DNA of 64,000 nucleotides, taken from NCBI GenBank assembly GCA_934526185.1, contig CAKTAA010000003.1, forward strand, positions 2,950 through 66,949, read 5' to 3'. This document shows positions 39,299 to 59,390 of this stretch, in pieces. Under the pieces are notes generated by a model, which worked only from the letters and a program-made list of their open reading frames with translations, made no database searches and had not been told where the DNA came from. A program made the translations under genes and the position numbers. Source of the DNA: an uncultured Eubacteriales bacterium (GTDB lineage Bacteria > Bacillota > Clostridia > Oscillospirales > CAG-272). Each line of letters starts with the position of its first letter. The first letter of the stretch is position 1.

Positions 39299-39341
39299 AG
39301 ATTCTCCGTATCTTTTTTCGCCTGCGCCGGTATTTGAAATG

Positions 39342-40034
39342 TTATCTCCCGTTCAGGGACAGCAATCCGTACAAATCTTTCAAATTTTCAATTATACAAA
39401 TCCCCCTCGGCTTTTTGGGGTAACTGCGTGCCGCAAGTACGGCATGCCATCCCATATCCTCTGCCGGCAGAATATCTTCGGTCAGCGAGTCCCCGACCAT
39501 CAGTGTGCGCCGGGAATCAAGCGCGTACTGAGCCGCTGCACGTTCAAAAAATGCTTTCTGCGGTTTGTTCACCTGAAGATCCTCCGACGAGCAGATAAAG
39601 TCAGGCACAAAGCCCTGACGCTGCACAGAATGAAGCAGAACGTCGTTATCTGCGTTGGTAAGCAGCCCCACTCTCCATTTTTTCCGCAGCACTGACAGGA
39701 CTTCATGCGCTTCTCGGAACGCCGGCGGTTCTGTAAACAGTTTTCCGAGCAGCGTACGGAAAGCCTCTTCGTCGCCTCTTACAGCAAAGGTCCGGCACGC
39801 ATGCAGATAGCTCTGTGCGAGAACCTCCGCTCCCCGCAGAAACGGCTTCCCCTCTGCCGTCAGCTTCAGACGGCGCTTGGCAAAGCAATAATAAAAAGCT
39901 TCCTCCGAATCCGCTTGTCCCCGTGCGGCCAGACGCTGCCCAAACCATTGACGAATCCTTACAAACGGCTCGCCCATATCCACCAGCGTTCCGTAATAAT
40001 CAAAGCATATGGTATCGACACTGAAACGCTTCAA
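39342..40034 (-). CDS. HAD-superfamily hydrolase (haloacid-dehalogenase-like subfamily)
   Basis: Motif I ICFDYYGTLVD, motif IV VGDSLTEDI. Apparent TTG start at 40034 with GGAGGA 7-8 nt upstream. Confidence 0.7.
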   Translation of the reverse strand: MKRFSVDTICFDYYGTLVDMGEPFVRIRQWFGQRLAARGQADSEEAFYYCFAKRRLKLTAEGKPFLRGAEVLAQSYLHACRTFAVRGDEEAFRTLLGKLFTEPPAFREAHEVLSVLRKKWRVGLLTNADNDVLLHSVQRQGFVPDFICSSEDLQVNKPQKAFFERAAAQYALDSRRTLMVGDSLTEDILPAEDMGWHAVLAARSYPKKPRGICIIENLKDLYGLLSLNGR

Positions 40035-40136
40035 CGCAGCTTCCTCCTGTTTTCTCGGTACTTCATTTCATAACGGCTGAACGCCTCTTATTCAGCCAGC
40101 CGCCGCATTTGCGGGCCGGGACATCCTGTTTTTTCC

Positions 40137-41462
40137 CTATATTCCTTCCGTTAAGCCGTTTTCTTTGAGTATCTGCCTGTTTAAGCTCTTTTCAGCGGCT
40201 GCCGCTCTGTCCAAAGCGTGAAAATACGTCATGACACGGCGGACGCGTTCAGGAGAATTGACACGGCGCAGAAGCGCCTCATACTTTTTTTCAAACGCTC
40301 CTTCCGGCAGTCCTCTCAGCTTATACAGCAGAGTGAAGCCGTCGTACAAATCCCAGTTGTCCGGCAGCTTTTCCGTCTCCTGCATCCTTCTGTAAAAGGC
40401 AGTGCCCGGAAACGGCGTAGCAACCGTAAGATTGGTACCATACATCGTGCTCTCCCATATGAACCGATATATGTCCTCAAAGGTCTGCTCCGTATCCCTC
40501 TCAAGGCCTAAAACGAAACTCCCGATAACACCGATGCGCTGGCGCTGTATCGCTTCCACAGCCTCATATCTCTCCTGTATTCTGCTTTTCTTAAAGCCAG
40601 ACGGATTGACTGTCCGCAGAGCCTCAGCGTCCAGACTCTCGAATCCGATAAGCAATTTTCGGCAGCCGGCGTCATACAGCCTGCTGAGAATATCTTTCCG
40701 CCTGTAAACCGATATATCTGTAAAGGCATACCAACGCACCCCCGTCCGGCTGAGAAGATCCAGGAGCGCATGGACGTCTCTGTGCCCTGTGAAAAAGTTG
40801 TCGTCGGTAAAAAAAACGAACGGATTTTTAAACAGACGGACAAGCTGCGCAAGCTCTTTTTCTGCCTGCTCCGGATCTTTTCTCCTCACCCTGCCCCCGT
40901 AAATTGCCGTGGAAAGGCAGAATTCGCAGCGGTGCGGACAGCCGCGGGACAACTGGATTGGCATACTGGAATAGGGATATTTTGCCGCCAGCTCATAGAG
41001 AGGGAGCGGCGATTCCGACAGAGGCGGTTTCTGTTCATCCGAATACAGCCGTTTGCCGCTGTCCGAAAGAAAATCGCCGATGCTTCGCTCCGCCTCCCCG
41101 ACAAATACGGCGTCCGCATGCTTCAGCGCTTCTTCCGGCAGCATAGTTGCGTGCGGCCCGCCCATTATGACACGCATTCCCCGCTTCTGAAACTGCTCGG
41201 CAAGTACATACGCCTTTCGAACCTGCGGCGTCGTCGGAGACAGGAATACGCAATCGTACCTTGTCTGCGGCAGGGTATCGTATTCTAAATCAACATAATC
41301 AACATCATATTTCGGCGCCAACAGTGCTCCGACTGTCAAAAGGCCGAGATGAGGCATGTTCCACAGCCGGCGCCGCGACCGGTATTCTGCCAGCTCCTCA
41401 AGGGATGCAGAGCGAGGATTGCGGCTTCTGTGTTCAAGCGAAAGCAGCAGGGCTTTGGGCAT
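40137..41462 (-). CDS. B12-binding-domain radical SAM protein (paralog 1)
   Basis: Start moved to MPKALLL (ATG 41462, GGAG upstream). N-terminal Rossmann-like block RVIMGGPHATMLPEEALKHADAVFVGEAE, cluster motif SRGCPHRCEFC (CxxxCxxC), FFTDDNFF. Confidence 0.85.
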   Translation of the reverse strand: MPKALLLSLEHRSRNPRSASLEELAEYRSRRRLWNMPHLGLLTVGALLAPKYDVDYVDLEYDTLPQTRYDCVFLSPTTPQVRKAYVLAEQFQKRGMRVIMGGPHATMLPEEALKHADAVFVGEAERSIGDFLSDSGKRLYSDEQKPPLSESPLPLYELAAKYPYSSMPIQLSRGCPHRCEFCLSTAIYGGRVRRKDPEQAEKELAQLVRLFKNPFVFFTDDNFFTGHRDVHALLDLLSRTGVRWYAFTDISVYRRKDILSRLYDAGCRKLLIGFESLDAEALRTVNPSGFKKSRIQERYEAVEAIQRQRIGVIGSFVLGLERDTEQTFEDIYRFIWESTMYGTNLTVATPFPGTAFYRRMQETEKLPDNWDLYDGFTLLYKLRGLPEGAFEKKYEALLRRVNSPERVRRVMTYFHALDRAAAAEKSLNRQILKENGLTEGI

Positions 41463-41551
41463 ATGATTTTGACTCCTTTCGCCGATAAAATGAAACTGCA
41501 CGGCGCAGCATACGACGCCATTCGATCTTCCGTCCTCCGGTCCGGCGTCGT

Positions 41552-42382
41552 TTATGACGGCGCGAAATCTGACGGTGCAAGACAGTAAACACAATGCGTC
41601 AGCGTATCGGTAAATACAATCCGTCCGTCTGAAAGCTGTGTGACAGCTCCTATATGCCCCGGACGTCCGAATCCCCATTCCCGGAATTTTCTGCGATCCA
41701 CCGCCGCTGCAATCTCCCCGCTTTCGACATTTAGGTGAAAAAGGGCGCGTGTCTCGCTGAACCAGATATTGCCCGCCGTGTCTGCCAACACGGATATGGG
41801 TTTGTGTCCGCAAAGCTCAAATGTATGTAACTTTCCCGTCTCCGTATGGTAACGCCGAATGCACGCGTACGCTGCGTCCGCAACATACAGGATACCCCGA
41901 TCATAAAAGATCCCGTACGGCTCCCCGCAGGGAATTCCGCGGAGAACCGTCATCTCCAGATTTCGATCTATTACACAAATTCTTTTGTTTAAAAAATCCG
42001 CTGCATAAAGGTTGTCTCCCTCTCCCCACGCAATACCTCCGGGGAGCCTCAGCGTCAGCCGACCGCGCGTCCGCAGCTTTTGCCAGCCAGCCGGCTTCTC
42101 ATAGACGTAAACCGCGTTTTCCTCCGCGTCGGTCACGGCAATACGCCCCTCCTTTACGCTGACGGCCAGAGGCTTCACAGGCTTGGCACAGCCTGCGCCG
42201 GCTCCAAGAGTCCGCAGGCTTCCGTCCGCCTCGCAAAAAGCGGCAACTCTGCCGTTTTCCATATCGCAGATATACAGCAGCTTTTCTCCGCTGTCATAGG
42301 CTGCGCCGGAGGGCCTTTGCAGCCCGCCTTCCGCGCCTATCCATCTTTCCGCTCTGTAAACGATTGACGTCGTGCCGTTCAT
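41552..42382 (-). CDS. NHL-repeat / six-bladed beta-propeller protein
   Basis: 276 aa with repeated ...LY(I/V)(A/C)D..N.R(V/I).. blades (LLYICDMENGRVAAF, LYAADFLNKRICVI, ILYVADAAYACIRRY). No signal peptide. Confidence 0.6.
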   Translation of the reverse strand: MNGTTSIVYRAERWIGAEGGLQRPSGAAYDSGEKLLYICDMENGRVAAFCEADGSLRTLGAGAGCAKPVKPLAVSVKEGRIAVTDAEENAVYVYEKPAGWQKLRTRGRLTLRLPGGIAWGEGDNLYAADFLNKRICVIDRNLEMTVLRGIPCGEPYGIFYDRGILYVADAAYACIRRYHTETGKLHTFELCGHKPISVLADTAGNIWFSETRALFHLNVESGEIAAAVDRRKFREWGFGRPGHIGAVTQLSDGRIVFTDTLTHCVYCLAPSDFAPS

Positions 42383-42633
42383 GCGTCGATATACCCTCGG
42401 ACAAGAGAGGCAAATGAGGCAATGTCGCGTATCTTATCCATATTCAAATCGCTGTCGTCGATTTCAATATCATACGCCTCTTCAATTTCTACAAGAATGG
42501 ACAGTGCCAAAATGGAGTCGATTCCAAGCGCCAGCAGCGGCGTGTCATAGGCAAGCGCCTCCGCCTTGCTCTTATCCTTCATTCGGGACGCAATGATCTG
42601 CTTTACCTTTTCCTCTACCGTGTTGTTCTGCAT
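42379..42633 (-). CDS. Acyl carrier protein
   Basis: 84 aa, acidic. Phosphopantetheine attachment motif LGIDSILALSILVEIEEAY. GAGAGGAG RBS. The stop overlaps the NHL gene start as ATGA. Confidence 0.8.
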   Translation of the reverse strand: MQNNTVEEKVKQIIASRMKDKSKAEALAYDTPLLALGIDSILALSILVEIEEAYDIEIDDSDLNMDKIRDIASFASLVRGYIDA

Positions 42634-42651
42634 ACAGCATGCTCCTCTCTT

Positions 42652-44241
42652 TTACGTATCTGCGCCGAATCGGCGGCAGTCCTGTGATTTTTCATGTATG
42701 GATTCCCCGCTGATTCCGGAAAGCGGAACGCGGAGCACACGGCTGTTGGCGCCGTCAAGAATCATCAGATTATTGCCGTTGATACACAGGGAGTTCGGGT
42801 TGGCCAGCCGTGTGTCTGATGCGTCTCCGGCCGGACTGTACCCTGCGCCAAGGCCGCCAGCCAGCGTGAAAATGCGGCGATCGCTCTTTCGGACAATTCT
42901 TACGCTGTGGCTGCCGGATTCCGAAATGTACAGATTTCCCGATGCATCCGTACATACTGCCGACGGCCGATTCAGTACAGCACACAATGCATCTCCTCCG
43001 TCGCCGCGTCCTCCGCTCCCTCCTCCGGCAGCAGTCCGGATTTTTCCGGTACAAAGATTTACCGCACGGATGCGATGATTGAGATAATCCGCTATGTACA
43101 GCACCTCCGCCCGAGAATCGATGCATATGCCGTAGATTTCCTGAAACGATGCCTCGGCGGCAGCGCCGCCGTCACCCGAAAATCCAAAGCGCCCGCTGCC
43201 TGCAAAGGTCTCAATGATGCCCTCTGCTGAAATACGACGCACGACATTATTTGCTATATCATTGATATACAGATTTCCGTGTTTGTCAGAGGCCACGCCT
43301 CCGGGCTTGTTCAGAGATGCACACGCGGCCGGTCCGCCGTCTCCGCCGAACCCCGCCTTTCCGGTTCCGCAAACAATGTGCACCCGTCTCACGCTTCCTG
43401 TCCTTCCGATATTTTCCAGCATGACAAGCTGATCGTTTCCGGTATCTGCGACAAACAGGCGATTTTCGATTGCATGCAGTGCCGTAGGCTTGTTCAGGCG
43501 CCCGCTTTCCGCCCTGCCACAGCCACTTCCGCCAAAGACAGGAAAAACGCGGCCGCCGCGGAGCATGACAACGCGGTGATTGTTTTGATCCGCTATATAA
43601 ATGGCATCTGTCACAGGAGATGCGGCGACCGCCTGCGGCTCCCAGAAAAGCGCTGTTTCCGCCGCTCCCCGGGAGGAGCATCCGGCATGTCCCCAAGCTC
43701 CGGCCTCATGGATGAGAGGTAGCGACGGTTCCAGCAGCACCCGCCCCTTATCCGGCTCCGCCTCGCTGCTGTACGTCTGTACGCAATTTCTCCTCCTTGC
43801 TTTTGCCAGAAGCAGCGCAGTATAGGCTTTACCTATCGTTCTCTCGGCCCGGTCTCCGCTGCTGCTCTCCGCAATGCCGGCGCTGAAGGTCAGACGGATC
43901 TTTTCATATCCCTCGCCGCCGGATAAAAGGCCCGCAAAGAACCGTTCCTTTCTGAACGCCGCCAGCGTGCCGCGGGCCATGCTTTCCGCCGCAGCTTTGT
44001 CTTTTTTTCGGAAGATAATCAGAAATTCGTCCCCGCCCGGCTCGTACAGCAGAGCCTCATTTTCAAAGACAGAGCAGAAAAAAGCTGTTATCCGCCGCAT
44101 TACAGTTCTGCATACATCGGGCGGAAACTTTATGCAGTATCTGAGAAAAAAATCGACGTCAATAAAAAGCAAACTGTACGGCCCTGTTTCTGCCGCGAGA
44201 ACACGCTCCGCTTTCTGTCTCAATCTTTCAATGCTGATCAT
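42652..44241 (-). CDS. GGDEF domain fused to NHL-repeat beta-propeller (paralog 1)
   Basis: N-terminal ~165 aa: LLFIDVDFF ... EPGGDEFLIIF ... LLLAKARRRN. C-terminal ~350 aa: NHL blades (AIYIADQNNHRVVML, LFVADTGNDQLVML, LYINDIANNVVRRI, LYIADYLNHRIRAV, LYISESGSHSVRIV). Confidence 0.7.
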   Translation of the reverse strand: MISIERLRQKAERVLAAETGPYSLLFIDVDFFLRYCIKFPPDVCRTVMRRITAFFCSVFENEALLYEPGGDEFLIIFRKKDKAAAESMARGTLAAFRKERFFAGLLSGGEGYEKIRLTFSAGIAESSSGDRAERTIGKAYTALLLAKARRRNCVQTYSSEAEPDKGRVLLEPSLPLIHEAGAWGHAGCSSRGAAETALFWEPQAVAASPVTDAIYIADQNNHRVVMLRGGRVFPVFGGSGCGRAESGRLNKPTALHAIENRLFVADTGNDQLVMLENIGRTGSVRRVHIVCGTGKAGFGGDGGPAACASLNKPGGVASDKHGNLYINDIANNVVRRISAEGIIETFAGSGRFGFSGDGGAAAEASFQEIYGICIDSRAEVLYIADYLNHRIRAVNLCTGKIRTAAGGGSGGRGDGGDALCAVLNRPSAVCTDASGNLYISESGSHSVRIVRKSDRRIFTLAGGLGAGYSPAGDASDTRLANPNSLCINGNNLMILDGANSRVLRVPLSGISGESIHEKSQDCRRFGADT

Positions 44242-44275
44242 ACAGGATTTTCCTCCAAATAAAAACAGGCTGCCG

Positions 44276-45655
44276 TTACGATTTTACAGCATTTTGGCGC
44301 ATGCCGCCTACAAAATTTTCCATCCCCGGAGAAAGGCGCCTTGTCCCGAAGAAAGCAAGCGAGCGATTGATCTTCCGCCGCAGCTTCTCCGAAATCCACG
44401 GTGTCTGAATTTTATCATAGGTAAACGACGCCCATCCCTCAAGCGACTGCGGAAAACGCATCCCGTAAGCCTGAGCCGTCTCGTACAGCGGCGTCCCTAA
44501 ATACGGTGAAAAAGCGAACAGGAGAATTTCCGCCTGAGGACAAACCGCGCGCACCTCACTGATGAGGGCAAGCGTGTTCTCCGTGTCTTTTTCCGGATTC
44601 CAGGGAAACCCGACCATGAAGGACAGCGTCGGCCGGACGCCAAACGACACGCAGCGCCGCACAAGCTCAAGAACCTCCCCGTTGGTATGGCGCTTGTTCA
44701 GATGCCTGAGCACATCGGCATCTCCGGATTCCACGCCCGCGATAACCCGGTAAAATCCGCTGTCCGTCAGCGCCTTCAGCTCCTGATGCGTAAACTTTAA
44801 AAACTGCCGGACAGCGGAGGCGCCGTCCCACCTGAGCTCCAGACAGCCCGCCCGCAGCATTTCGGAAAATTTCAGAGCTCGCTCCCGATCTACGAAAAAA
44901 TTGTTGTCAAAGAAGTGAACGGCGTCTATATCATACTGTTCCTTCAGGTATTTCAGATCCCAGTACACGTTCTCACACCCCAGCCCCTGCCAGCGCCTTT
45001 TGAACACAGCGCCGATAGAGCAAAACGTACAGGCATACGGACATCCGCGGCTCGACTCGTATCCGAGAATCCTCCGGTTTCCCCACCCTTCATGTATATA
45101 TTCAGGCATCCGGAGATAGCGGTATCCCCCGCGCATGCTCTTCGGAATCGGCATCCGCTCCGTTTTTTCTGTCTTTCCGATGATGATCCCGCCTTCCGGC
45201 AATTTGTAAGCCACACCCGGCATATCGAAAGGCTCCTCGCCCCGCTTCAGCCTGTCCAACAAGCGCGGAAGGATCCTCTCTCCCTGACCGATGACAACAA
45301 TATCCACAAGCGTATGCATAAGTGTTTCACCAGGCATCAGACTCGGGTGCCAACCGCCCCAGATCAGTCTGATTTCCGGCGCAAGATCTCTTACCCGCCG
45401 GGCAAAGCGCAGGCCGTTGGTAATCTGAGCGCTGGTTGTCGCGCTGATGCCGACGGCAAACACATCCCGCAGCCGCTCGGCAAGCTCACCGGTCTGGAAG
45501 GAACCATCCTTTAACCGTTCGTCAATAACTTCCACTTCAAACCGTGCGCCCACGGCCTCTGCAAGCGCAGCCACTGACAGAGGGATATCCGTATACAGCG
45601 GCGCCTCCGTCCCCTCGCTCTCAAACGACGGATAAAACAGCAGAACCTTATGCAT
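44276..45655 (-). CDS. B12-binding-domain radical SAM protein (paralog 2, divergent)
   Basis: Start moved to MHKVLLFYP (ATG 45655, GGAGGA upstream). SRGCPYACTFC cluster motif, HFFDNNFF. More divergent from the other five paralogs. Confidence 0.85.
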   Translation of the reverse strand: MHKVLLFYPSFESEGTEAPLYTDIPLSVAALAEAVGARFEVEVIDERLKDGSFQTGELAERLRDVFAVGISATTSAQITNGLRFARRVRDLAPEIRLIWGGWHPSLMPGETLMHTLVDIVVIGQGERILPRLLDRLKRGEEPFDMPGVAYKLPEGGIIIGKTEKTERMPIPKSMRGGYRYLRMPEYIHEGWGNRRILGYESSRGCPYACTFCSIGAVFKRRWQGLGCENVYWDLKYLKEQYDIDAVHFFDNNFFVDRERALKFSEMLRAGCLELRWDGASAVRQFLKFTHQELKALTDSGFYRVIAGVESGDADVLRHLNKRHTNGEVLELVRRCVSFGVRPTLSFMVGFPWNPEKDTENTLALISEVRAVCPQAEILLFAFSPYLGTPLYETAQAYGMRFPQSLEGWASFTYDKIQTPWISEKLRRKINRSLAFFGTRRLSPGMENFVGGMRQNAVKS

Positions 45656-45682
45656 AGAATTCCTCCAATCCATATCCTGGCT

Positions 45683-46345
45683 TTAGCAACCGACATACGG
45701 CGGCTTCTTTTCCGGGGAAAGAACTTTTTTTACCGTTCTTTCCGATAAAGAATAGTACCGAAGCAAAAGACGGGCTGTGACCGTCGACAGCATTTCAAAA
45801 TCCACAGCTCGGTTCAGCGTCACCGACTGAACATGCACAGCGTCGCTGAGAACGGTAAACAGAAGCGAAAGCGCTTCGCGTTCTCCCCGCGGCAGCTCCC
45901 GTACACCGGCGAGCACGAGCAGCTCCGCAAAGGAAGCCGAGTAGAATTGATACAGCTCACACAGTCTTTGCCGGACATAGGAATCCTCCCGATCCTTTAC
46001 CAGCTTCCACAAATCGATGTAGACGGAAAGAATCTCGGGATGCGTACCGGAGCCCAATACAAAACCGCGGGCCAGATGCGCAAGTCTTTCGGAAGGTTCC
46101 GCAGTTTTTTTCATTTCCGTCCGCAGCGCCTCCACCCAACGTACTCCGGCCGCCGCCATGGTATCCATCAGCAGCTCCTTGTCGCCTTCCGGAAAAAGTT
46201 CTGCGAGAAGGTCGGAGCTCAGGCACGCTGCCCGCGAAAGATTTCCGAGTGTCAGACCGTCCGTTCCCCGCTCTCTCAGTATCTGCAATGCTATACGGGT
46301 TATTTTCTGTTTTCTGCTGTCCATCCGCCTCATAAAAGAATCCAT
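45683..46345 (-). CDS. TetR/AcrR-family transcriptional regulator
   Basis: N-terminal HTH ITRIALQILRERGTDGLTLGNLSRAACLSSDLLAELFP, with a helical C-terminal ligand-binding-type domain. ~220 aa. Confidence 0.7.
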   Translation of the reverse strand: MDSFMRRMDSRKQKITRIALQILRERGTDGLTLGNLSRAACLSSDLLAELFPEGDKELLMDTMAAAGVRWVEALRTEMKKTAEPSERLAHLARGFVLGSGTHPEILSVYIDLWKLVKDREDSYVRQRLCELYQFYSASFAELLVLAGVRELPRGEREALSLLFTVLSDAVHVQSVTLNRAVDFEMLSTVTARLLLRYYSLSERTVKKVLSPEKKPPYVGC

Positions 46346-46429
46346 ACCTATGCAAAGACCTCCTTTTTGTTAACCGGGCGTACTTGAAAATGCCTGTTTT
46401 TTAATATCCCGGACAAACTGCCCCCAAAA

Positions 46430-47350
46430 TCACGGTTCATTCGAATTGAATTCCCGTCCGCACATCCACCTGTCAAAAAAGCCGACGACAAGCGTATCAT
46501 ACGTCTTTCCCATCACAACGCGGTTTGTCAGATGATGCGCCTTTTCCACCGTTATCAGCTTCGCCGTTTTTGGGTTCAGAAGGCTGTGCGCGTACACGGC
46601 GTCCCTATAAGGTATAATGCGATCTGTTTTGCTGTGTATCAGCAGCGTCGGAAGCGCTCTCAGACGCTTCAATCTTTCAACGGTTCGCTTCTGCATCCTC
46701 GAAAATCCGGCAACATGCAGATACAGAAAGAGAAATACCCTTCTTTCAAGGGGATTTTCGACCTGTTTATTGTTCAGAACATATCTGAAATAATCCCGGA
46801 CGAAAATCATTGGACCGCTGTCCACGGCGACCGCGCGAAGCTCGGGCAGCTCGTCCGCCGCGCTGAAGGCAACGGTCGCTCCCATGGAAAACCCGATGGC
46901 ACCGTATGGCTCCGGCATGCCGATTTCCCTGATTCTTCGGACAAACCGCTTCATATCGTCCTCCAGAGAATAACGGATTCCCCGCCGGTCGCCGCTTCCG
47001 CCGTGATTGGGATAATCAAACGCCGCAACGGCGTACCCCGCTATCAGAAGCGGCTCTATATAGGAGTATACCGAGGTTTTGGAGCCTCCGAGATAATGAC
47101 AGGCAATGATCGTGCCCTTTGCCTCACCGCGCGGAAAATACTGAATGGCCGCCAGCGAAAGGCCGTCCCGCGAAAAAAAGCGGAAACTGCGCGTTCGATA
47201 AGGAATATTCCGTATTTCCGTCGGTGCGGCTCTTTTGGGATGGCTCGTTTCTTTTACCAGACGGTATCCCCGAACAGCGCTCCGTACAGCAAAAGCAAGC
47301 ATCCCCGCCGCGGCACACAGGACAGCCGTGTATAAAATTTTCTGGATCAT
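46430..47350 (-). CDS. Membrane-anchored alpha/beta hydrolase
   Basis: N-terminal TM ILYTAVLCAAAGMLAFAV, nucleophile elbow GFSMGATVA, oxyanion-region CHYLGGSK. Its ATG overlaps the upstream gene's stop as ATGA (47347-47350). Confidence 0.75.
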   Translation of the reverse strand: MIQKILYTAVLCAAAGMLAFAVRSAVRGYRLVKETSHPKRAAPTEIRNIPYRTRSFRFFSRDGLSLAAIQYFPRGEAKGTIIACHYLGGSKTSVYSYIEPLLIAGYAVAAFDYPNHGGSGDRRGIRYSLEDDMKRFVRRIREIGMPEPYGAIGFSMGATVAFSAADELPELRAVAVDSGPMIFVRDYFRYVLNNKQVENPLERRVFLFLYLHVAGFSRMQKRTVERLKRLRALPTLLIHSKTDRIIPYRDAVYAHSLLNPKTAKLITVEKAHHLTNRVVMGKTYDTLVVGFFDRWMCGREFNSNEP

Positions 47351-48903
47351 GACAGCACCACCCGTCTGATTGCATTGTTCGCATAATCCGCGATATATAG
47401 ATAATTTTTGTCGGCCGTCACGCCGGCGGGAATATGAAAGCAGGCTTCTCGCTCATTTTTCAGGCTGTCTGTATAGCCCGCTATTCCGCAGCCTGCTGCG
47501 GTTTCAACGATGTCTTTCTGTACATGCCAGCGCCGGATGCGGTGATTCAGGGCGTCCACGATATAGAGCCACTCCTCCGCGCTGTCCAGGCAAACCCAAT
47601 ATGGCCCGTTGAGATACGCATCCGCTCCTTTTCCGCCGTCTCCGCCGAAGCCCGCCTTTCCGCAGCCGCATACCGTTTGGATTTTGCCTCCGTCCGCCAG
47701 ATTCACGCGCCGGATACGGTTGTTACCGTAATCGGCGATATACAGCATATCGCCACTGCGTGACACGCATAAGCCGTACGGCCTGTCCAGCGCCGCCTGA
47801 CCGGCGTCTCCTCCGTCCCCGCTGAATCCGAATGCACCGCTGCCCGCAACGGTTTCTATCGTCCCCTCTTTGCTGATGCGGCGGACGACGTTGTTGCCGT
47901 AATCATTTATATATACATTTCCGACACAATCAGCCGCCACGCCTCCGGGCCTGTTCATTTTTGCACGCCGTGCTTCGCTGCCGTCACCGTCATAGCCGCT
48001 GATTCCGCTGCCCGCCAAAACGGAAGCCCGTCCGTCCCTGATTTGAAGGATTCTGTGATGTCCGGTATCCGCAATGTACATCACGCCGCTTCCGCCGATG
48101 CAGACACCGCTCGGCTTGCAAAGCGCCAGCTCCAGCGGATCCGGTCGGCATTCGCCCGCCTGAATCCCGTCTGTGAAACCTATCTCATTTAAGGTATTGC
48201 CGGCGGCTGTATACAGTTTTCCGCCGGTCACTCTGACAATTCTGTGATTTGAGCGGTCGGCAAAGAGCAGAGAACCGTCTCTGTCCACAGCCACGCCGTA
48301 CGGCTCCGATATTGCCGCCCCAAACGCCCGCTCGCCGTCCCTTCCCCTTCCTTTCAGGGATCCGCCGACAACGGTAGTGCATCTTCCCTCTCCGCAAAAA
48401 ACCGTTATTTTATCCGGTTCCGCATATACAATTCGATTTCTACCCATTTTTTTCGCATTGAAAAGAGCGATCTCCGTATGTTTCAGCAAGGTAAACAAGT
48501 CCGCAGCCTGATGGCTGCCGGCCACCCCCATACTGAAGGTTATCCGAACCTTTTCGTACGGGTATGCGCCGACAAATCTGGTGCGGCGCCATTCCTCACG
48601 CAAATTTTCAAGCCGTCGGCGGACCTCTTCCTGCTCTGTCTCCCAAAGGAGAAGCAGAAATTCATCTTCTCCGCTGTACGCAGCCGATAAACCATGGATT
48701 CCGGCAAGAAAGGCAGCCATGTGCCGCAGCGTCAGGTCTCCCTGTTCCGCCCCGATTTTTTCATTCAGATTTGCAAAAAAATCAACATCCAGCAGAGCCG
48801 CCGTCATTCTTTTTTTGCCGGTGTATCCGCTCCGTATCCGTCTCTCAATCTCTTCCCGCGTCAAAATACCCGGAATAGATATTTTTCTTTCATTTTCCGG
48901 CAT
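47347..48903 (-). CDS. Degenerate GGDEF domain fused to NHL-repeat beta-propeller (paralog 2)
   Basis: LLDVDFFANLNEKIGAEQGDLTL ... YSGEDEFLLLL ... NAKKMGRN, then NHL blades (LLFADRSNHRIVRV, MYIADTGHHRILQI, VYINDYGNNVVRRI, LYIADYGNNRIRRV, LYIVDALNHRIRRW, LYIADYANNAIRRV). Start preferred at ATG 48903 (AAAGGA 7 nt upstream); the ORF extends to 48972. Confidence 0.7.
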   Translation of the reverse strand: MPENERKISIPGILTREEIERRIRSGYTGKKRMTAALLDVDFFANLNEKIGAEQGDLTLRHMAAFLAGIHGLSAAYSGEDEFLLLLWETEQEEVRRRLENLREEWRRTRFVGAYPYEKVRITFSMGVAGSHQAADLFTLLKHTEIALFNAKKMGRNRIVYAEPDKITVFCGEGRCTTVVGGSLKGRGRDGERAFGAAISEPYGVAVDRDGSLLFADRSNHRIVRVTGGKLYTAAGNTLNEIGFTDGIQAGECRPDPLELALCKPSGVCIGGSGVMYIADTGHHRILQIRDGRASVLAGSGISGYDGDGSEARRAKMNRPGGVAADCVGNVYINDYGNNVVRRISKEGTIETVAGSGAFGFSGDGGDAGQAALDRPYGLCVSRSGDMLYIADYGNNRIRRVNLADGGKIQTVCGCGKAGFGGDGGKGADAYLNGPYWVCLDSAEEWLYIVDALNHRIRRWHVQKDIVETAAGCGIAGYTDSLKNEREACFHIPAGVTADKNYLYIADYANNAIRRVVLS

Positions 48904-48978
48904 GCATCTATCCTTTCCGCCATCCCCGCAGAACAGCATGTGAATACAGTCAGGCACTTCATCATTCGGCATGTCCTC

Positions 48979-49734
48979 TCACAGCAGGCGCAGATTTTCA
49001 AGCCTGCGCATCATATCCGGATCCCTCACCGTACGGAGCAGACTCCAGGCGGAAAATTTTACTGGAATGTCCCTGTTTACAATTTTTTTTGTATTTTTAA
49101 GCGTTTCCGCCGAAAGCTCGCTCAGCCTGTCGGCAAGCAGAAGTGCCTGTTCCGCCGCCTTTGCCGTGCCGGAAATCCTGCCGGTTATTCCCATACGGCT
49201 GGCCTCCTCCGCAGAGATTCGTTCGTTGGTCAGGCAGATTCTCTTTGCGGCCGCAGCTCCGCAGGACCGGCTGATAAGTGTCAGCGTACCGTCCCCCATC
49301 AGACCGCCGTACTGCGGATCCGGCAGCCAGAGCCATGTGTCGGGCGATGCCGTCCGAAAATCACATGCCATGGCAATGGATACTGCCGAACCGATGACTG
49401 CGCCGGAAAGGGCAGCGATATAAATTTTACGGCTTTTCAGAATCGCCTTTATCAGACGATGAACCGATCTGACCGCCAGAAACACTTCTCTGCGGCATGA
49501 AAAACCGGCAGCAAGCGAACGCAAATCCAGACCGGAGGAAAAAATATCGGGAAGTCCGCTTTCCAGCACGACGCAGGAGATACAGCTCTCCCGCTCGGCT
49601 TCCAGCAGTAAGCGGCGAAGCGTCTCCAAAAAGGAGCGGTCAAACGCATTTGCTGGCAGGCGCCGCCACGTCAGTATCCGAACACGGCCCCGGGTTATTT
49701 TTTCTATTACCTTTTCGTCCATATCGATGACCAT
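48979..49734 (-). CDS. Enoyl-CoA hydratase/isomerase (crotonase) family protein
   Basis: RRLPANAFD, VVLESGLPDIFSSGLDL and GAVIGSAVSIAMACDFR fit the crotonase oxyanion-hole pattern. The ATG at 49734 (or 49722) gives the usual N-terminal length; the ORF track extends to a GTG at 49845. Confidence 0.65.
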   Translation of the reverse strand: MVIDMDEKVIEKITRGRVRILTWRRLPANAFDRSFLETLRRLLLEAERESCISCVVLESGLPDIFSSGLDLRSLAAGFSCRREVFLAVRSVHRLIKAILKSRKIYIAALSGAVIGSAVSIAMACDFRTASPDTWLWLPDPQYGGLMGDGTLTLISRSCGAAAAKRICLTNERISAEEASRMGITGRISGTAKAAEQALLLADRLSELSAETLKNTKKIVNRDIPVKFSAWSLLRTVRDPDMMRRLENLRLL

Positions 49735-49987
49735 AGCTTTCGCTTTGCGAAAGCTTCCTTTCCTGAGGAATCGGGACATGCTTGGCGGTTCAAATTCGCC
49801 AAACGCTTGTGAGAGTTTTATATAATCAAGCTTCGTGTTCTTCACTTTTTAAGGAGCAGTATTCCGTCATACGGCGTCATGAAAACCGGACGCCGCCGGA
49901 TACTGTTTTACCGATTTTTCAAACGGACGGACAACCGTTCCGGATGGTACTGACGCCTCAGATTCCGCAGAATCTTCACCGTATCCG

Positions 49988-51142
49988 TTACAGCATTTCT
50001 CCCCCTGTCTCCCCGGCTTTTCTGCGTCCGCATTTTTCGATGAAGCGAAGCAGCGGTGTTTCATCAAAGGTTCCGGAAACGACATCTGCCGCGGCATGAA
50101 AAACCGGCAGCCCGGCGGTTTGAAGACGTCTGCGCATACCGGCCGCAGTACGCGGCAGAAAGGAACACCGCCGTTGAAGAAAATTGACCGCCGCACCCGC
50201 CCCGCTCTGTTTGATGACGGCAAGAATTCTTTCTTCGCGCCTTTCCTGACGATAAAAAATATTTTCTGTAACCGTTCGGGCCAAATCCTCATAAAACGCG
50301 GAGGCCGATATCTGTCCGCCGCCGAACATCCACATTTCCTCGAACACAAAGGCGCAGCCTGTTTTACTTTCAAGCCGGCGGAGAAGATTGTTGTCATACA
50401 GCGGCACAAGCCCCATCCAGAACAGGCGGTTGTCTCCGCAGGCATGCCTCCGCGGCCGGTCCCCCGCCTCCTGATTCAACGCCTGCATCACACAGAGCGC
50501 AGACGGACGACCGAGATCGTTTTCCACACAGAAAAGCTTCAGGCATAGACCACCCGGCAGAACACCCGGCTGCCGGAGGCGCCGCGCGTCAATATCTCTT
50601 TTCAGGCCGAGCGCACGGTTATAGAAGCCGGCAGTTTCTGACACCCCCTGCCGCTGCCCGAATCGGCGAAGCAGCCACTCTCCCAGCCCGCGCAGCTCGT
50701 CGGCTGACGGATTCCCGGAAACAACAAAAAGCGGTATACCATATTTTTTGTGCAGCGCCTTGCACAGCTCAACCGCTCCCGTACACGGATACTCCGTCGC
50801 TGCTTCAGCCGACGGTTTTGGGAGCAGTCCGGCTTCAATCAGGGAAAAAAAGGCTTGCTGGTAGGAGCAGGTTCCGTCTGGGAGCAGAGCATCCGAGTTA
50901 CTGGGAATCAGACGCGCACCGGCACAAAGTCCTACGATTCTGTCGATATAAAGCACTTCCGCATCGACAAGCGCCGTAAGCGCAGACGGTATGTAATAGG
51001 TACACAATACATACGGACGCCCTTCGTAAATTTTCAGCAGCGTGTCTCTCTGTGACGCAAGGTAAACGGCCAGTGCACAGCCTTCCCCTGCCGCCGTGGC
51101 GTATCTGAGCATCATTTCCAGTCGCGTAAGAAGCTTATCCAT
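49988..51142 (-). CDS. 2-hydroxyacyl-CoA dehydratase (HGD-D) family subunit
   Basis: 384 aa. General HGD-D/BcrC-type pattern (Cys-containing blocks, YIPSALTALVDAEVLYID). Overlaps the activase gene by 8 nt. Confidence 0.65.
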   Translation of the reverse strand: MDKLLTRLEMMLRYATAAGEGCALAVYLASQRDTLLKIYEGRPYVLCTYYIPSALTALVDAEVLYIDRIVGLCAGARLIPSNSDALLPDGTCSYQQAFFSLIEAGLLPKPSAEAATEYPCTGAVELCKALHKKYGIPLFVVSGNPSADELRGLGEWLLRRFGQRQGVSETAGFYNRALGLKRDIDARRLRQPGVLPGGLCLKLFCVENDLGRPSALCVMQALNQEAGDRPRRHACGDNRLFWMGLVPLYDNNLLRRLESKTGCAFVFEEMWMFGGGQISASAFYEDLARTVTENIFYRQERREERILAVIKQSGAGAAVNFLQRRCSFLPRTAAGMRRRLQTAGLPVFHAAADVVSGTFDETPLLRFIEKCGRRKAGETGGEML

Positions 51143-51905
51143 AGCGCACCGCCATCACCGCCGCGCCCAGTGCCCCCGTTATCTGCGGCTCAAAGGGTAT
51201 TTTCAGTGCCGGATATTTTTTGCAAAAGCAGTCGGCAACCGCGCCGTTTTTGGCCACGCCTCCCGTAAGCACCAAAGTGCAGCCGTCCGGAATGTTTCCG
51301 GCCAGTGCGAGAATGCGCCCTGCTATGGACTGACAGATTCCCGCAGCAATATCCTCGCGTCCGACACCCTTCGAGATGCCGGAGATTACCTCGCTCTCCG
51401 CAAATACCGTACAGGTACTGCTGATCGGATATGGCTTTTCCGCCCGCCTCGCACATTCGGAAAAAGCGTCAAGATCCATCTTCATCACGCCGGCCATCAC
51501 TTCAAGAAAGCGCCCTGTCCCTGCCGCACACCGATCGTTCATGGCAAAGCTTTTAACTGTTCCGTCGTCAGACAGCCGAATAACCTTGCTGTCCTGTCCC
51601 CCGATATCGATAATGCACCCAGCATTCGGAAACAGGTACCGGACGCCCGCCGCATGACAGGTAATTTCCGTCAAACTGCGGGCGCCTTCAATATTGCCTC
51701 GGCCGTATCCGGTTCCGACAGTACCGCCTATCTCCCGCTCATCCACCCCTGCCCGTTCGCAAAGGCGGCGCGTAAGCTCACGCGCAGTCTGCGCATGGCT
51801 GTATCCGCTTGATTGTGTGAGATAGGATACAGGACGCCCCGCACTGTCCGTCAATACGGCATTTGCGGAAACGGAACCAATATCGATTCCCAAATAGTAC
51901 TTCAT
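51135..51905 (-). CDS. Acyl-CoA dehydratase activase (BcrAD/BadFG/HgdC-type ATPase)
   Basis: YLGIDIGSVSANAVL (ASKHA phosphate-1), NDRCAAGTGRFLEVMA (cluster-bridging Cys region), LTGGVAKN. 256 aa as for HgdC/HadI. Confidence 0.85.
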   Translation of the reverse strand: MKYYLGIDIGSVSANAVLTDSAGRPVSYLTQSSGYSHAQTARELTRRLCERAGVDEREIGGTVGTGYGRGNIEGARSLTEITCHAAGVRYLFPNAGCIIDIGGQDSKVIRLSDDGTVKSFAMNDRCAAGTGRFLEVMAGVMKMDLDAFSECARRAEKPYPISSTCTVFAESEVISGISKGVGREDIAAGICQSIAGRILALAGNIPDGCTLVLTGGVAKNGAVADCFCKKYPALKIPFEPQITGALGAAVMAVRYG

Positions 51906-53104
51906 AACCGATTCTCCAGACTTTCTGAAAATGCGTCCATGCGGAGCTTCATCTGCTGTGCCGAAACGCCTCCCGGATCGATGCAGTCGCCGTACAGCTC
52001 AAGACAGGGCAAGCCCTGCCGTACGCAAAGCTCTTTCAGTTCCCATGCCGCGCCCGGTATGGCACGGCATCCCTGATGCATGAAGATGACTGCGGCCTCT
52101 ATGTTCATCTCGCGTATGATTTTATTGTAAAGCGTCGGTTTGCCGCCTGAATGACCGAGAAGAAAGTGTGACATTACCTTCTGTGCAATTGAAGAGAGCG
52201 GACGCCTCTCGTCAAGCGGCTCCCAATAGATATATCCGGTCATGTCAAATGCGACGGCACATTTGAGCGTCTGCTCAAAATATCGGAGAAGCTCCCCCGA
52301 AAACAGCGGTGCGAAGTGTACCCACAGCAGTCTGTGGTACTTTCCGGGCATCGGCACCCGGCTCTCCAGCTCCTCCCTGTACGCCCGCGCAATACGGGCT
52401 CCTTCGGCGGAACCAAGCAGAAAGGTCAAGCCGAACAGATTGCGCAGCGCCAAATTGCCGCAAAAAAGAAGATTTTGGCTCCGCATACAGTTTGCGCGTA
52501 CAAGCTCGTCTCTCGCTTCGTTTGAAAGATGCACGGCTTCCTCCAGCTCCGCGCGTCCAAAGCTCCTGCCCATTCTTCTCAGAAAAAAGCCGCACAGCTT
52601 CGCAAGCCTTTTCCGCATCAGCCGTCTGTTCTCCGGCGTATCAAGATACGGCACTTCCAAGAGAAACACCTCGGTTCCGTGCCGCTCCCGCAGATACCGC
52701 GCCATCGCTGTTCCGCCGTCACATATATGCGAGGAAAGAACCGCCGTTTTCGGCGGAGGCAGCATGCCGCTCTCCAGAGCCCCTATCACCGCCTTGTGAT
52801 AGGAGCAGACACCCACAGGAAACCCCGCTGAGTGCGCGTATGCAATCTGACCGGCAGCCAGCCCCAGCGTCGACATCCAGCCCGACATAAGCTCTATGTG
52901 AACAGGAATGCATCCGGCGGCATACAGCAGCTCTGTCGGCATGACCATATTGGTCCAAACAACGGACTCCGTTTTTTTCCACACCGTGTCGGAAAACAGT
53001 CTGCTCTGATAGCTGACGAGCAGGCGCGCGGCATTCAGCTCCATCTGTGCGGAGGCGCCTCCCGCCAGCCGCATCCGCTGTCTCCATATTTCTGCGGTCG
53101 TCAC
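51902..53104 (-). CDS. 2-hydroxyacyl-CoA dehydratase (HGD-D) family subunit
   Basis: VVWTNMVMPTELLYAAGCIPV and later Cys blocks are typical of HgdA/HadB-like subunits. Likely GTG start at 53104 (AAGAGGA 5 nt upstream); the ORF extends to 53182. The stop overlaps the activase start as ATGA. Confidence 0.65.
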   Translation of the reverse strand: MTTAEIWRQRMRLAGGASAQMELNAARLLVSYQSRLFSDTVWKKTESVVWTNMVMPTELLYAAGCIPVHIELMSGWMSTLGLAAGQIAYAHSAGFPVGVCSYHKAVIGALESGMLPPPKTAVLSSHICDGGTAMARYLRERHGTEVFLLEVPYLDTPENRRLMRKRLAKLCGFFLRRMGRSFGRAELEEAVHLSNEARDELVRANCMRSQNLLFCGNLALRNLFGLTFLLGSAEGARIARAYREELESRVPMPGKYHRLLWVHFAPLFSGELLRYFEQTLKCAVAFDMTGYIYWEPLDERRPLSSIAQKVMSHFLLGHSGGKPTLYNKIIREMNIEAAVIFMHQGCRAIPGAAWELKELCVRQGLPCLELYGDCIDPGGVSAQQMKLRMDAFSESLENRL

Positions 53105-59323: not shown

Positions 59324-59390
59324 ACTCCCTTCGCAAAACCGTTTTTTATGCCCAGTATCGTTACACTCCAGCCGCCGCTGCGGAAAAGCA

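Follow-up and report, generated by a model that had tools for sequence, protein, structure and literature searches.

The window analysed here, a 64,000-nucleotide stretch of DNA, encodes two proteins, p1 and p2, in each of which a genuine GGDEF (palm) domain is joined to a six-bladed NHL propeller, of the type seen in teneurin-like proteins and NHLRC2. They fall into sister clades, one each, of a small and previously undescribed cytoplasmic family, for which we found neither literature nor a curated family and which, across the 17 loci examined, is confined to one conserved gene-cluster family in Bacillota. By sequence, neither appears to be a canonical diguanylate cyclase because p2 carries GEDEF and p1 lacks both guanine-recognising residues; cyclase activity is presumably absent. 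Since the family is confined to one cluster type, has recurrently lost its signature and is still under selection, it is probably no longer an ordinary signalling enzyme. We tentatively propose that p1 and p2 serve as accessory subunits that lack cyclase activity and probably bind a nucleotide, and that the propeller of each may dock a pathway partner.

Architecture and active sites of the two proteins

In p1, Pfam GGDEF (PF00990) matches residues 5-152 (profile positions 17-160; E 1.7e-9, 38.1 bits, cut-off 23.8), and the propeller part matches NHL (PF01436) at 1.2e-19 and TEN_NHL at 7e-18; the corresponding values for the p2 ORF are 1.2e-13 (51.6 bits, residues 39-180), 8.9e-23 and 1e-19. 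The AF2 models are confident (pLDDT 88.6 and pTM 0.90 for p1, 86.6 and 0.85 for p2), and each combines a GGDEF-type alpha/beta domain with 24 propeller strands, hence six blades, the sixth being closed in p2 by an N-terminal strand. A sequence-only reading had described a GGDEF domain leading into a 5-6-bladed propeller without an N-terminal sensor: the fusion stands, the blade count becomes six in both models, and indeed in neither p1 nor p2 does the GGDEF domain have a signal peptide, TM segment or sensor domain ahead of it. The two propellers share 39% identity, and p1 orthologs (P0272-P0375) are 43-100% identical. Translation of p2 probably begins at M24 (48903), for a protein of 518 aa: AAGGA lies 7 nt 5' of this codon, the ortholog P0002 (86% to p2) begins at the equivalent position, and pLDDT falls below 50 over residues 1-31. 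The stretch described in the sequence-only reading ends at the same coordinate.

Table 1. Features of the window, with coordinates, strand and supporting evidence
Feature	Position	Strand	Evidence
Co-directional cluster around p1/p2	38861..64000	-	Pfam + NCBIfam, same gene set in relatives
Enoyl-CoA hydratase/crotonase, directly upstream of p2	48979..49845	-	Pfam ECH_1 1.4e-30, synteny
p2-type GGDEF-NHL protein, 541-aa ORF	47347..48972	-	Pfam, AF2, start-site reasoning
p2 GGDEF domain, ORF aa 35-185	48418..48870	-	PleD alignment E 4e-12, family motif table
DVDFFANLNEKIGAEQGD motif of p2	48736-48789	-	
GEDEF signature of p2	48658-48672	-	
AKKMGRN motif of p2	48436-48456	-	
p2 six-bladed NHL propeller, ORF aa 198-541	47350..48381	-	AF2
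Alpha/beta hydrolase, GFSMG nucleophile elbow	46430..47350	-	Pfam, synteny
TetR-like ORF, part of p1 module	45683..46345	-	weak BetI-type NCBIfam match
B12-binding radical SAM enzyme (rSAM_D), immediately upstream of p1	44276..45673	-	Pfam, synteny
p1-type GGDEF-NHL protein, 529 aa	42652..44241	-	Pfam GGDEF + NHL + TEN_NHL, AF2, orthologs
p1 GGDEF-like domain, aa ~20-158	43768..44184	-	PleD + DosC alignments
DVDFFLRYC motif of p1	44107-44160	-	
GGDEF signature of p1	44023-44037	-	
AKARRRN motif of p1	43786-43806	-	
p1 six-bladed NHL propeller, aa ~177-510	42712..43713	-	Pfam, AF2 secondary structure
Acyl carrier protein (ACP)	42379..42633	-	Pfam PP-binding 7e-12
Stand-alone compact NHL protein (NHL3)	41552..42382	-	Pfam NHL 2.7e-11

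Alignment with PleD (phmmer against PDB; mafft) places p1 D28/D30 on D327/D329 and K147/R150 on K442/R446; the signature G69-G-D-E-F73 is unbroken, and the guanine-binding Asn and Asp are gone, N335 being replaced by C36 and D344 by R45. p2 retains D62/D64, N70 (N335), D79 (D344) and K174/R178 and has Glu at the second Gly of G101-E-D-E-F105, the same ungapped position at which the orthologs P0004 and P0115 read GGDEF. The RxxD I-site is absent from both, since the PleD-equivalent positions read ENEA in p1 and IHGL in p2, and none was found in the family sequences aligned. These residues are as the sequence-only reading had them: a signature without the substrate-binding motif in p1, the motif with an altered signature in p2 and no I-site. 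The comparison with PleD that it had suggested indicates a canonical active site in neither window protein.

The palm domain shares its fold with the PleD/WspR/DosC cyclases (PF00990; phmmer E 4e-12 for p2-PleD, 2e-7 for p1-DosC), with metal ligands (D327, D329, signature Asp/Glu) and phosphate ligands (K442, R446) conserved, and many p2-type orthologs are fully canonical. Unlike these cyclases, GGDEF-NHL proteins have no N-terminal sensor/dimerisation domain and no I-site, carry a C-terminal propeller and have repeatedly lost the signature, and their genes lie in a biosynthetic operon and nowhere else; of the window copies, p2 has GEDEF and p1 lacks N335 and D344. Several fates are known for GGDEF proteins that have degenerated: GdpP/YybT binds NTP and is a weak ATPase, PelD and PopA are c-di-GMP receptors through their I-site, and DgcM-type 'trigger' proteins have a non-cyclase role. 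The family resembles them in keeping the fold under selection after the canonical cyclase motifs were lost, and some members show weak Pfam similarity to GGDEF_GdpP; it differs in lacking DHH/DHHA1, PAS and EAL domains, in its fusion to NHL and in its genomic context. A PelD/PopA-type receptor was rejected because the I-site is missing.

The propeller is best matched by NHL domains of a bacterial teneurin-like protein, SOQ1 and NHLRC2 (Foldseek E 1e-21 to 2e-31; for p2, 9ifo with 40% identity, 7djl and 6gc1/6g7w). Its nearest solved relatives, TRIM-NHL included, are binding-type NHL domains, and no enzyme occurs among the 50 listed matches. Nor does any structure among these 50 best matches span both domains, the best query-normalised TM-score being 0.57 over ~357 aligned columns, the propeller only. 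SOQ1 and NHLRC2 also place a small enzyme-like domain ahead of a six-bladed NHL propeller, although theirs is thioredoxin-like and not a GGDEF palm; unlike these proteins and the teneurin-like one, GGDEF-NHL proteins are cytoplasmic and operon-embedded. ScyF (scytonemin cluster, NCBIfam NF035926) is likewise an NHL-repeat protein of a natural-product cluster, and its profile shows weak similarity to p1 (E 1e-16), p2 (2e-13) and NHL3 (3e-9), but the scores (37-61 bits) are far under the family cut-off of 350, and ScyF has a PEP-CTERM sorting signal, no GGDEF domain and an unrelated pathway.

A family tied to one gene cluster

The architecture is rare: a scan of 185,579 species, each represented by a single genome, retained its 80 best loci, and only nine of them cover the GGDEF part, a lower bound because the scan was pattern-limited. 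Related loci from Clostridia and Paenibacillus, 17 in all, were examined, and in each of them GGDEF-NHL genes occupy fixed positions of one conserved cluster. This upholds the suspicion of a non-standard c-di-GMP layout and speaks against common, context-independent signalling proteins.

From its high-coordinate end, the window cluster comprises a B12-rSAM gene (cut by the window end), AT, a PigC/Rph-like PEP-utilising enzyme, three B12-rSAM genes, three HGD-D genes with a BcrAD activator, ECH and p2, followed by the hydrolase, the TetR-like ORF, rSAM, p1, ACP, NHL3, rSAM, HAD and a FabA/ApeP-like dehydratase. The same gene set is found in loci L001-L012 and L083-L088, its conserved content being several B12-radical-SAM enzymes, three HGD-type dehydratase subunits with their activator, ECH, ACP, a FabA-like dehydratase, AT and the PigC-like enzyme. 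The cluster, rich in radical enzymes, resembles fatty-acid/polyketide synthesis, of an uncharacterised lipid/polyketide type.

No cluster seen in full lacks a p2-type member, whose gene always stands ahead of the alpha/beta hydrolase gene; the latter follows directly in 15/15 p2-containing loci and in the window overlaps p2 by ATGA (47347-47350). An N-terminal hydrophobic stretch of the hydrolase, read by eye, is a putative TM helix. The p1 type is confined to one layout, always ahead of ACP and the stand-alone NHL gene. ACP is immediately downstream of p1 in every p1-containing locus and highly conserved (78-98% identity between loci, dN/dS 0.04); its ATGA overlap with NHL3, already noted from the sequence, was verified at 42379-42382. 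Within the p2-hydrolase pair and the p1-ACP-NHL3 trio, neighbouring genes lie very close together or overlap. A second layout shows a single GGDEF-NHL gene in the ~21-kb stretches covered.

Signature loss and selection

The 18 p2-type signatures read GGDEF (10), ESDEF (3), GEDEF (2), CSDCF, GSDSF and GPDEF, and the 15 p1-type signatures GGDEF (6), GCDEF (5), GADEF, GFDEF, NSDEF and GDDEY. The GG/Glu signature was lost repeatedly, in several separate lineages, and the clusters carrying degenerate copies are otherwise intact. Ten of the 18 p2-type members are fully canonical (RYGGDEF, N/D at the N335 position, D344, K442, R446), so that the GEDEF of the window is a recent, lineage-specific change; these ten suggest that cyclase activity may be selected in part of the family. 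Ruminiclostridium cellobioparum and Bianquea renquensis, for example, have RYGGDEF members.

Each clade has 16-20 invariant residues, concentrated on the former active site. Those of the p2 clade include the PleD metal/phosphate ligands (D62, D64, D103, K174, R178); the p1 set comprises D28, D30, F31, R34, Y35, F39, D71, E72, K147 and R150, of which D28, D30, D71, E72, K147 and R150 match such ligands, and this clade has its own conserved FF[LI]RY[C/S/R] motif at the former base-binding site. Judging from the alignments, the signature GG and Glu positions are expendable across the family and the Mg2+/triphosphate ligands (DxD, signature Asp, Lys and Arg of AK..RN) are invariant. These acidic and basic residues could equally reflect retained catalysis of some kind.

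The degenerate domains are still under purifying selection in the two pairwise comparisons made: dN/dS is 0.16 (bootstrap 0.08-0.32) for the GEDEF lineage (p2 GGDEF domain against L085) and 0.20 (0.11-0.33) for the ESDEF lineage, and 0.04-0.29 for neighbouring enzymes. The p1 GGDEF domain is the most relaxed (0.43). Sequence change is slower in the propeller than in the GGDEF part (mean pairwise identity 0.52 vs 0.39 and 0.56 vs 0.43).

Proposed role and alternatives

As accessory subunits, p1 and p2 would use the palm domain as a nucleotide-Mg-binding and/or oligomerisation module, and the propeller would dock a pathway partner: for p1 perhaps the intermediate tethered to ACP, or else the B12-radical-SAM enzymes on either side, and for p2 perhaps the predicted membrane-anchored hydrolase or CoA-thioester enzymes. 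Synthesis of c-di-GMP would be at most ancestral or auxiliary, in p2-type members that still carry RYGGDEF.

Alternatively, the p2 type might be an I-site-less diguanylate cyclase dedicated to the pathway, its propeller sensing an intermediate or product and its c-di-GMP acting on the TetR-like protein or the degenerate p1, thereby tuning cluster expression or enzyme activity. We consider this unlikely. The ten canonical p2-type members, the fact that the nearest PDB sequence relatives are active cyclases (PleD, DosC, DgcZ, WspR) and the place of the TetR-like ORF in the p1 module would all fit, and degenerate GGDEF proteins commonly serve as partners or receptors. However, the signature is lost in 8/18 p2-type proteins under persisting selection, including the window p2 itself, single-copy clusters (CSDCF in L009, GSDSF in L011) and clusters where both copies are degenerate (L083, L087). 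p1 has no RxxD I-site for a receptor role, no PilZ or EAL domain was found in the window or related loci, and no c-di-GMP riboswitch or other Rfam family in the window or six related loci. The TetR-like ORF, which has no Pfam match, does not occur in the second layout and in L003 and L005 forms one 495-aa ORF with the hydrolase, and the GGDEF-NHL genes are translationally coupled to enzymes, unlike regulators.

It is quite improbable that the palm is a nucleotidyl transferase or cyclase of non-canonical type, which would use NTP and two metals to modify a hydroxyl or phosphate of a propeller-held intermediate; in the p1 clade, the RY[C] motif would then mark a substrate pocket of recent origin. 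The invariant metal and phosphate ligands of both clades are consistent with such chemistry, and the new p1 motif is unlike random decay; the high pTM values may point to a fixed domain arrangement able to form a composite site, and some variants contain other nucleotide-activating genes; L088, for example, has both a cytidylyltransferase and a PfkB kinase. Yet the catalytic Glu is lost in L009 and L011 and the hairpin glycines in many members, which makes family-wide two-metal phosphoryl transfer hard to reconcile; the propeller is like binding modules and unlike enzymes, and p1 has the most relaxed GGDEF domain. Between this idea and that of a scaffold, both raised by the sequence-only reading, the scaffold or adaptor is the better supported.

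The sequence-only reading had also proposed heterodimers, from the complementary degeneracy of p1 and p2. This complementarity holds for the window pair but is not a conserved feature: the p2/p1 signatures are GEDEF/GGDEF in the window and L085, ESDEF/GGDEF in L005 and L006 and GGDEF/GDDEY in L012, patterns with at least one GGDEF and the other copy altered, but GGDEF/GGDEF in L001, GPDEF/GCDEF in L083 (the variant sampled most often) and ESDEF/GCDEF in L087, many clusters have one copy, and the second layout shows a single one. Nor is the pattern reciprocal, since base-binding residues are missing throughout the p1 clade. As PleD structures establish, base recognition and signature hairpin act in cis on the same GTP, and every protomer of such a dimer must supply both to hold and activate its own; a pair of complementary half-defects thus cannot yield one complete site in trans, where not even a full half-site would be restored. 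That one protein's signature and the other's base pocket rebuild a cyclase site is thus very hard to believe.

Finally, that the GGDEF parts are functionless decaying relics and the propellers alone matter is highly improbable: the GGDEF part does evolve faster and often loses its signature, but all its dN/dS values are below 1, the invariant residues persist on the former active site, no truncated GGDEF-less replacement occurs in any cluster examined, and NHL3, which shares 24-26% identity with the propellers of p1 and p2, is a compact protein of its own rather than a GGDEF-less version.

Domain architecture and active sites

By homology, paralogs 1 and 2 (p1 and p2, names also used for two sister clades) can be assigned to the GGDEF superfamily and to the NHL propeller class. 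In these co-directional ORFs, Pfam places the GGDEF domain at the very N-terminus (p1, residues 5-152, E 1.7e-9; p2, residues 39-180, E 1.2e-13), with PF00990 scores (38.1 bits for p1, 51.6 bits for p2) above the gathering cut-off of 23.8, while the TIGR00254 cut-off (37.4) is passed by p2 and not by p1 (34.2). NHL and teneurin-type NHL repeats follow C-terminally in both (E 1e-18 to 1e-23), with matches to the repeat profiles PF01436 and PF25021 (NHL E 1e-19 and 9e-23). The domain order described in the sequence-only reading is found both by Pfam and in AF2 models, structure prediction having been proposed there as a check: the models are confident (p2, pLDDT 86.6, pTM 0.85; p1, built with database orthologs, pLDDT 88.6, pTM 0.90) and contain a GGDEF-type alpha/beta domain and, after it, six propeller blades with four strands each. 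Identity between p1 and p2 is 29% for the GGDEF part and 39% for the propeller. Translation of p2 probably starts at the third Met of the ORF, at 48903, because AAGGA precedes this codon by 7 nt, the 86% ortholog has the same start and residues 1-31 have pLDDT <50 in the model; this is also where the sequence-only reading had ended the gene pair.

Alignment to PleD (whose numbering is used for N335, D344, D327, D329, E370, K442 and R446) bears out all motif statements of that reading. p1 has an intact GGDEF signature with Cys36 and Arg45 in place of the guanine-binding Asn335 and Asp344, which are missing throughout the p1 clade; p2 retains both (Asn70 and Asp79) with a GEDEF signature, in which the orthology-based alignment identifies the second glycine as replaced by Glu; and an RxxD I-site five residues upstream of the signature is absent from p1 (ENEA), p2 (IHGL) and all aligned family members. 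Metal ligands (equivalents of D327 and E370) and phosphate ligands (K442, R446) are present in both. As aligned, neither protein combines a GG[DE]EF hairpin with Asn335 and Asp344, and the case considered earlier of two canonical active sites did not materialise. Because each lacks one defining feature, p1 and p2 differ from PleD-type active cyclases and are not expected to act as such. They also match neither I-site receptors, Hypr-GGDEF cyclases nor Cas10 palms. Hypr-GGDEF (cGAMP-forming) cyclases have an intact GGDEF and Ser or Thr for Asp344; this feature is not seen, p2 having Asp at that position (Asn in the database orthologs P0115 and P0201) and p1 having Arg and no Asn335. The Cas10/Cmr2 palm profile scores 22 bits on p2, under the cut-off of 27, and gives no match on p1.

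Foldseek comparison to the PDB matched the propeller only, with a probability of 1.00 to NHL propellers, and no match among the 50 listed covers both domains. The best matches are a bacterial teneurin-like protein (40% identity), SOQ1, NHLRC2, designed Pizza propellers, teneurins and TRIM-NHL domains. These structural relatives are binding modules, and no propeller enzyme of the SMP30/gluconolactonase, Vgb lyase or arylesterase type is among the 50 matches listed. The SGL (SMP30/gluconolactonase) profile reaches 26.8 bits on p2 against a cut-off of 26.3, no single stretch passing alone, and Vgb_lyase reaches 24.6 against 50; NCBIfam holds no specific model, and its matches (ScyF, SiaD, PleD and others) are all far under cut-offs. 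SOQ1 and NHLRC2 are alike in logic, a small enzyme-like domain being fused to an NHL propeller, as are degenerate GGDEF proteins that retain a non-cyclase job.

A cluster-bound family

In word-indexed searches, generic NHL proteins dominated the matches to the full-length queries, the few GGDEF-bearing matches being orthologs, and the GGDEF part alone returned 2 matches only. Exhaustive phmmer with the p2 GGDEF part retrieved 78,338 GGDEF proteins; among them, just a handful of ~510-aa proteins carry the domain N-terminally, and these are GGDEF+NHL by Pfam. The next-closest GGDEF domains to that of p2 are in tandem-GGDEF and CHASE-GGDEF proteins; the nearest non-NHL relatives (P0124, P0126, P0128, P0130, P0131, P0133) have two or three tandem GGDEF domains, an architecture that is a possible source of the p2 domain. 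In a pattern scan of one genome per species (185,579 species), the matches extend over the GGDEF part in at least nine loci (Paenibacillus haidiansis, Ruminiclostridium cellobioparum, Bianquea renquensis and six Bacillota MAGs), a lower bound since exact peptide patterns are required; the remaining 70 loci kept encode NHL-only proteins from other phyla. According to gene calls and a tblastn map, the GGDEF-NHL genes lie within the same cluster in all 17 loci. The family is real, rare and cluster-bound. The p1 ortholog P0375 occurs in 492 blocks of an assembly collection (350 contigs counted), showing that the cluster is common in the sampled communities. No source in the protein collection names these proteins; in the portions of the literature available, no paper describes GGDEF+NHL proteins or the gene set of the cluster, for which NCBIfam likewise gave no curated family. 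A link to ladderanes was dropped, the available parts of the ladderane papers making no mention of HGD-type or NHL genes.

From the window end down, all on the minus strand, the cluster comprises a B12-radical-SAM gene (cut by the window end), an acyltransferase, a PEP-utilising enzyme weakly like PigC/RedH/Rph, three B12-radical-SAM genes, three HGD-D genes (2-hydroxyacyl-CoA dehydratase/benzoyl-CoA reductase type) with a BcrAD activator ATPase, a crotonase (ECH), p2, an alpha/beta hydrolase with a hydrophobic N-terminus, a TetR-like ORF, a B12-radical-SAM gene, p1, an ACP, a compact NHL protein (NHL3), a B12-radical-SAM gene, a HAD hydrolase and a FabA/ApeP-like dehydratase. The ATGA coupling between the ACP and stand-alone NHL genes reported earlier is real, and the p2 and hydrolase genes overlap in the same way. 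The core order is rSAM-rSAM-HGD-HGD-BcrAD-HGD-ECH-(KR)-p2-hydrolase, followed in one layout (that of the window) by TetR-like-rSAM-p1-ACP-NHL3-rSAM and in a second by rSAM-AT; over the stretch covered, this second layout shows a single GGDEF-NHL gene. Further genes seen in other variants are KS, a second ACP, an NMO-type reductase, thiolase, flavodoxin, a HemN-like radical SAM enzyme and acetyl-CoA carboxyltransferase, and these argue for a pathway of the fatty-acid/polyketide type. The cluster counts at least six B12-radical-SAM enzymes, together with a three-subunit HGD-type radical dehydratase or reductase and ACP/KS/AT/KR/DH. An Rfam scan at gathering thresholds of the window and six related loci (cluster 5' ends partly covered) found no family and no c-di-GMP riboswitch.

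Signature loss, selection and possible roles

Among 18 p2-type proteins the signature is GGDEF in ten, GEDEF in two (the window and its 86% relative), ESDEF in three, and CSDCF, GSDSF or GPDEF in one each; the 15 p1-type proteins have GGDEF (six), GCDEF (five), GADEF, GFDEF, NSDEF and GDDEY. Canonical RYGGDEF orthologs occur in Ruminiclostridium cellobioparum DSM 1351, Bianquea renquensis NSJ-32 and Paenibacillus haidiansis M1. Invariant in both clades are the two Asp of DxDFF (D327, D329), the signature Asp and the Lys and Arg of AK..RN (K442, R446); the fourth signature residue (Glu) is missing in two related loci, L009 and L011. The p1 clade has a conserved motif of its own, DxDF[FY][LI]RY[C/S/R], which replaces the former base-binding residues. 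Since p1 and p2 have family-specific motifs in common, their split fits a duplication within the family. All clusters seen in full have a p2-type gene, and this type is presumably the older one. Signature pairs within clusters (p2/p1) differ: GEDEF/GGDEF in the window and its relative L085, GGDEF/GGDEF in L001, ESDEF/GGDEF in L005 and L006, GGDEF/GDDEY in L012, GPDEF/GCDEF in L083 and ESDEF/GCDEF in L087. The complementary degeneracy highlighted by the sequence-only reading is therefore not a conserved property: both signatures are GGDEF in L001, both are degenerate in L083 and L087, and the second layout shows one gene over the stretch covered.

Selection was estimated from Nei-Gojobori codon comparisons (bootstrap intervals in brackets) for two pairs. 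Between the window and L085, omega is 0.16 (0.08-0.32) for the GEDEF-bearing domain of p2 and 0.19 for its propeller, 0.43 (0.23-0.84) for the GGDEF domain of p1 and 0.17 for its propeller, and 0.04-0.29 for neighbouring enzymes; between L005 and L006, of the ESDEF lineage, it is 0.20 (0.11-0.33) for the p2 GGDEF domain. Given values of 0.16 and 0.20 in two comparisons, the signature-degenerate domains do not appear to be decaying. The cyclase signature is expendable in the family, while selection maintains both the ligands of metal and phosphate and the overall domain. Family-wide, conservation is lower in the GGDEF part than in the propeller (mean pairwise identity 0.39 vs 0.52, and 0.43 vs 0.56). 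Clade-invariant residues of p2 also lie at the starts of propeller blades (E-P-Y, K-P-S, R-P-G, R-P-Y, G-P-Y-W and I-P-A).

We tentatively favour a conserved role other than c-di-GMP synthesis, in which the palm would have retained nucleotide-Mg binding or would mediate assembly, and the propeller would dock a pathway partner: by gene order, p1 would bind the ACP, NHL3 or the B12-radical-SAM enzymes, and p2 the hydrolase. A c-di-GMP circuit local to the pathway is favoured by the ten canonical p2 members, but it appears unlikely given the signature loss in several lineages, the operon position of the genes and the lack of a receptor in the window and related loci. New nucleotidyl-transfer chemistry is somewhat less likely still: it gains support from catalytic-type residues that do not vary and from the novel motif of p1, but the signature Glu is missing in two clusters. 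Similarly doubtful is the proposal that natural-product assembly recruited a GGDEF palm out of c-di-GMP signalling to serve as a functional part of the pathway, either (i), as a nucleotide-dependent enzyme that would nucleotidylate or activate an ACP- or CoA-tethered lipid intermediate on the propeller; or (ii), as a GTP-gated chaperone that would load cobalamin or substrate onto the B12-radical-SAM enzymes. Such a chaperone would follow a logic analogous to that of MeaB-type G-protein chaperones, and BtuG is a precedent for a propeller protein binding B12; if such a recruitment occurred, the FF[LI]RY[C] motif of the p1 clade would mark a new ligand pocket. The complementary p1-p2 heterodimer of the sequence-only reading is rejected as a family feature on the signature pairs, and we hold it to be highly improbable. 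That the GGDEF part is a functionless relic is contradicted by dN/dS (0.16-0.43, all <1) and was rejected as barely credible.

The family and its context are surprising, and the mechanism is one that we infer. A GGDEF profile match invites automatic labelling as diguanylate cyclase, which would enter these proteins in the c-di-GMP inventories of gut and soil Bacillota, when the evidence makes them dedicated parts of a biosynthetic pathway, often unable to be cyclases. The family also constitutes a natural experiment on the GGDEF fold once cyclase chemistry is dispensable, with the signature lost in several lineages, metal and phosphate ligands kept and selection still strong; and reconstitution of the pathway will probably need these accessory proteins.

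Neighbouring genes and cluster boundaries

Locations of GGDEF-NHL genes and neighbouring features (window positions unless a related locus, L, is named)
Feature	Location	Strand	Description
p1	42652-44241	-	529 aa, GGDEF then NHL/teneurin-type NHL repeats (Pfam)
p2	47347-48972	-	541-aa ORF, GGDEF then NHL/teneurin-type NHL repeats (Pfam)
NHL3	41552-42382	-	Stand-alone compact NHL protein
Last B12-radical-SAM gene	40137-41813	-	Mechanical ORF, overlaps NHL3 by ~260 nt
TetR-like ORF	45683-46345	-	Separate gene
Alpha/beta hydrolase	46430-47350	-	N-terminal hydrophobic stretch MIQKILYTAVLCAAAGMLAFAV, putative TM helix by eye
Hydrolase + TetR-like fusion	L003:2019-3506; L005:11500-12987		One 495-aa ORF
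ECH-p2 gap	48972-48979		~6 nt, KR missing
KR (short-chain dehydrogenase)	L002:9251-10000; L083:4905-5657		Between crotonase and p2
Two short ORFs	54514-54834; 54894-55112	+	In gap 54253-55215, HGD-like gene to radical SAM gene
GNAT acetyltransferase	L085:3989-4465	opposite to cluster	One intact 158-aa ORF
PEP-utilising enzyme	59391-61823	-	810 aa, PPDK_N + PEP-utilising mobile domain, no PEP/pyruvate domain
Further B12-binding radical SAM	62944-63996	-	N-terminus beyond window end
Membrane insertase fusion	36570-38735	+	721 aa, YidC/60KD_IMP + CDP-glycerol glycerophosphotransferase
Fusion neighbour in L001	L001:21143-21512		82% identity, flanks cluster
Extra genes	L088:8642-13035		PfkB kinase, cytidylyltransferase, PNK3P-type HAD
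Extra genes	L083:13822-19557		Flavodoxin, thiolase, HemN-like radical SAM enzyme, acetyl-CoA carboxyltransferase alpha/beta
Extra genes	L087:13608-18640		KS, second ACP, NMO-type reductase

Fusion of the two in L003 and L005 argues that the product of the TetR-like ORF may serve the hydrolase as a ligand-binding partner instead of being a free DNA-binding regulator. The KR gene precedes p2 in most related clusters; it is missing there in L001 and L085 as in the window, and is located farther downstream in L087. Judging by the extra genes of L088, L083 and L087, the product would be a modified fatty-acid-like compound that may have a nucleotide-activated head group. The PEP-utilising enzyme, whose best profiles (the prodigiosin ligases PigC/RedH, rifampicin phosphotransferase) are all far below cut-off, is retained by every cluster variant and points to an ATP-dependent phosphoryl-activation step in the pathway.

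The radical SAM gene at the window end, with weak best NCBIfam matches of the HpnJ, PhpK and BchE types, is cut, so the cluster extends past 64000, where the KS and other FAS-type genes of the relatives may lie. The last B12-radical-SAM gene probably starts at the Met at 41462 (441 aa), since its orthologs have 416-440 aa. The insertase fusion, with Pfam families taken from the gene call of its L001 ortholog, is convergent to the cluster end. By eye, the second of the two short plus-strand ORFs resembles the C-terminal part of the GNAT protein encoded at the counterpart position in L085; the window's copy thus looks broken, or reflects a sequencing error, and this segment has reduced GC.
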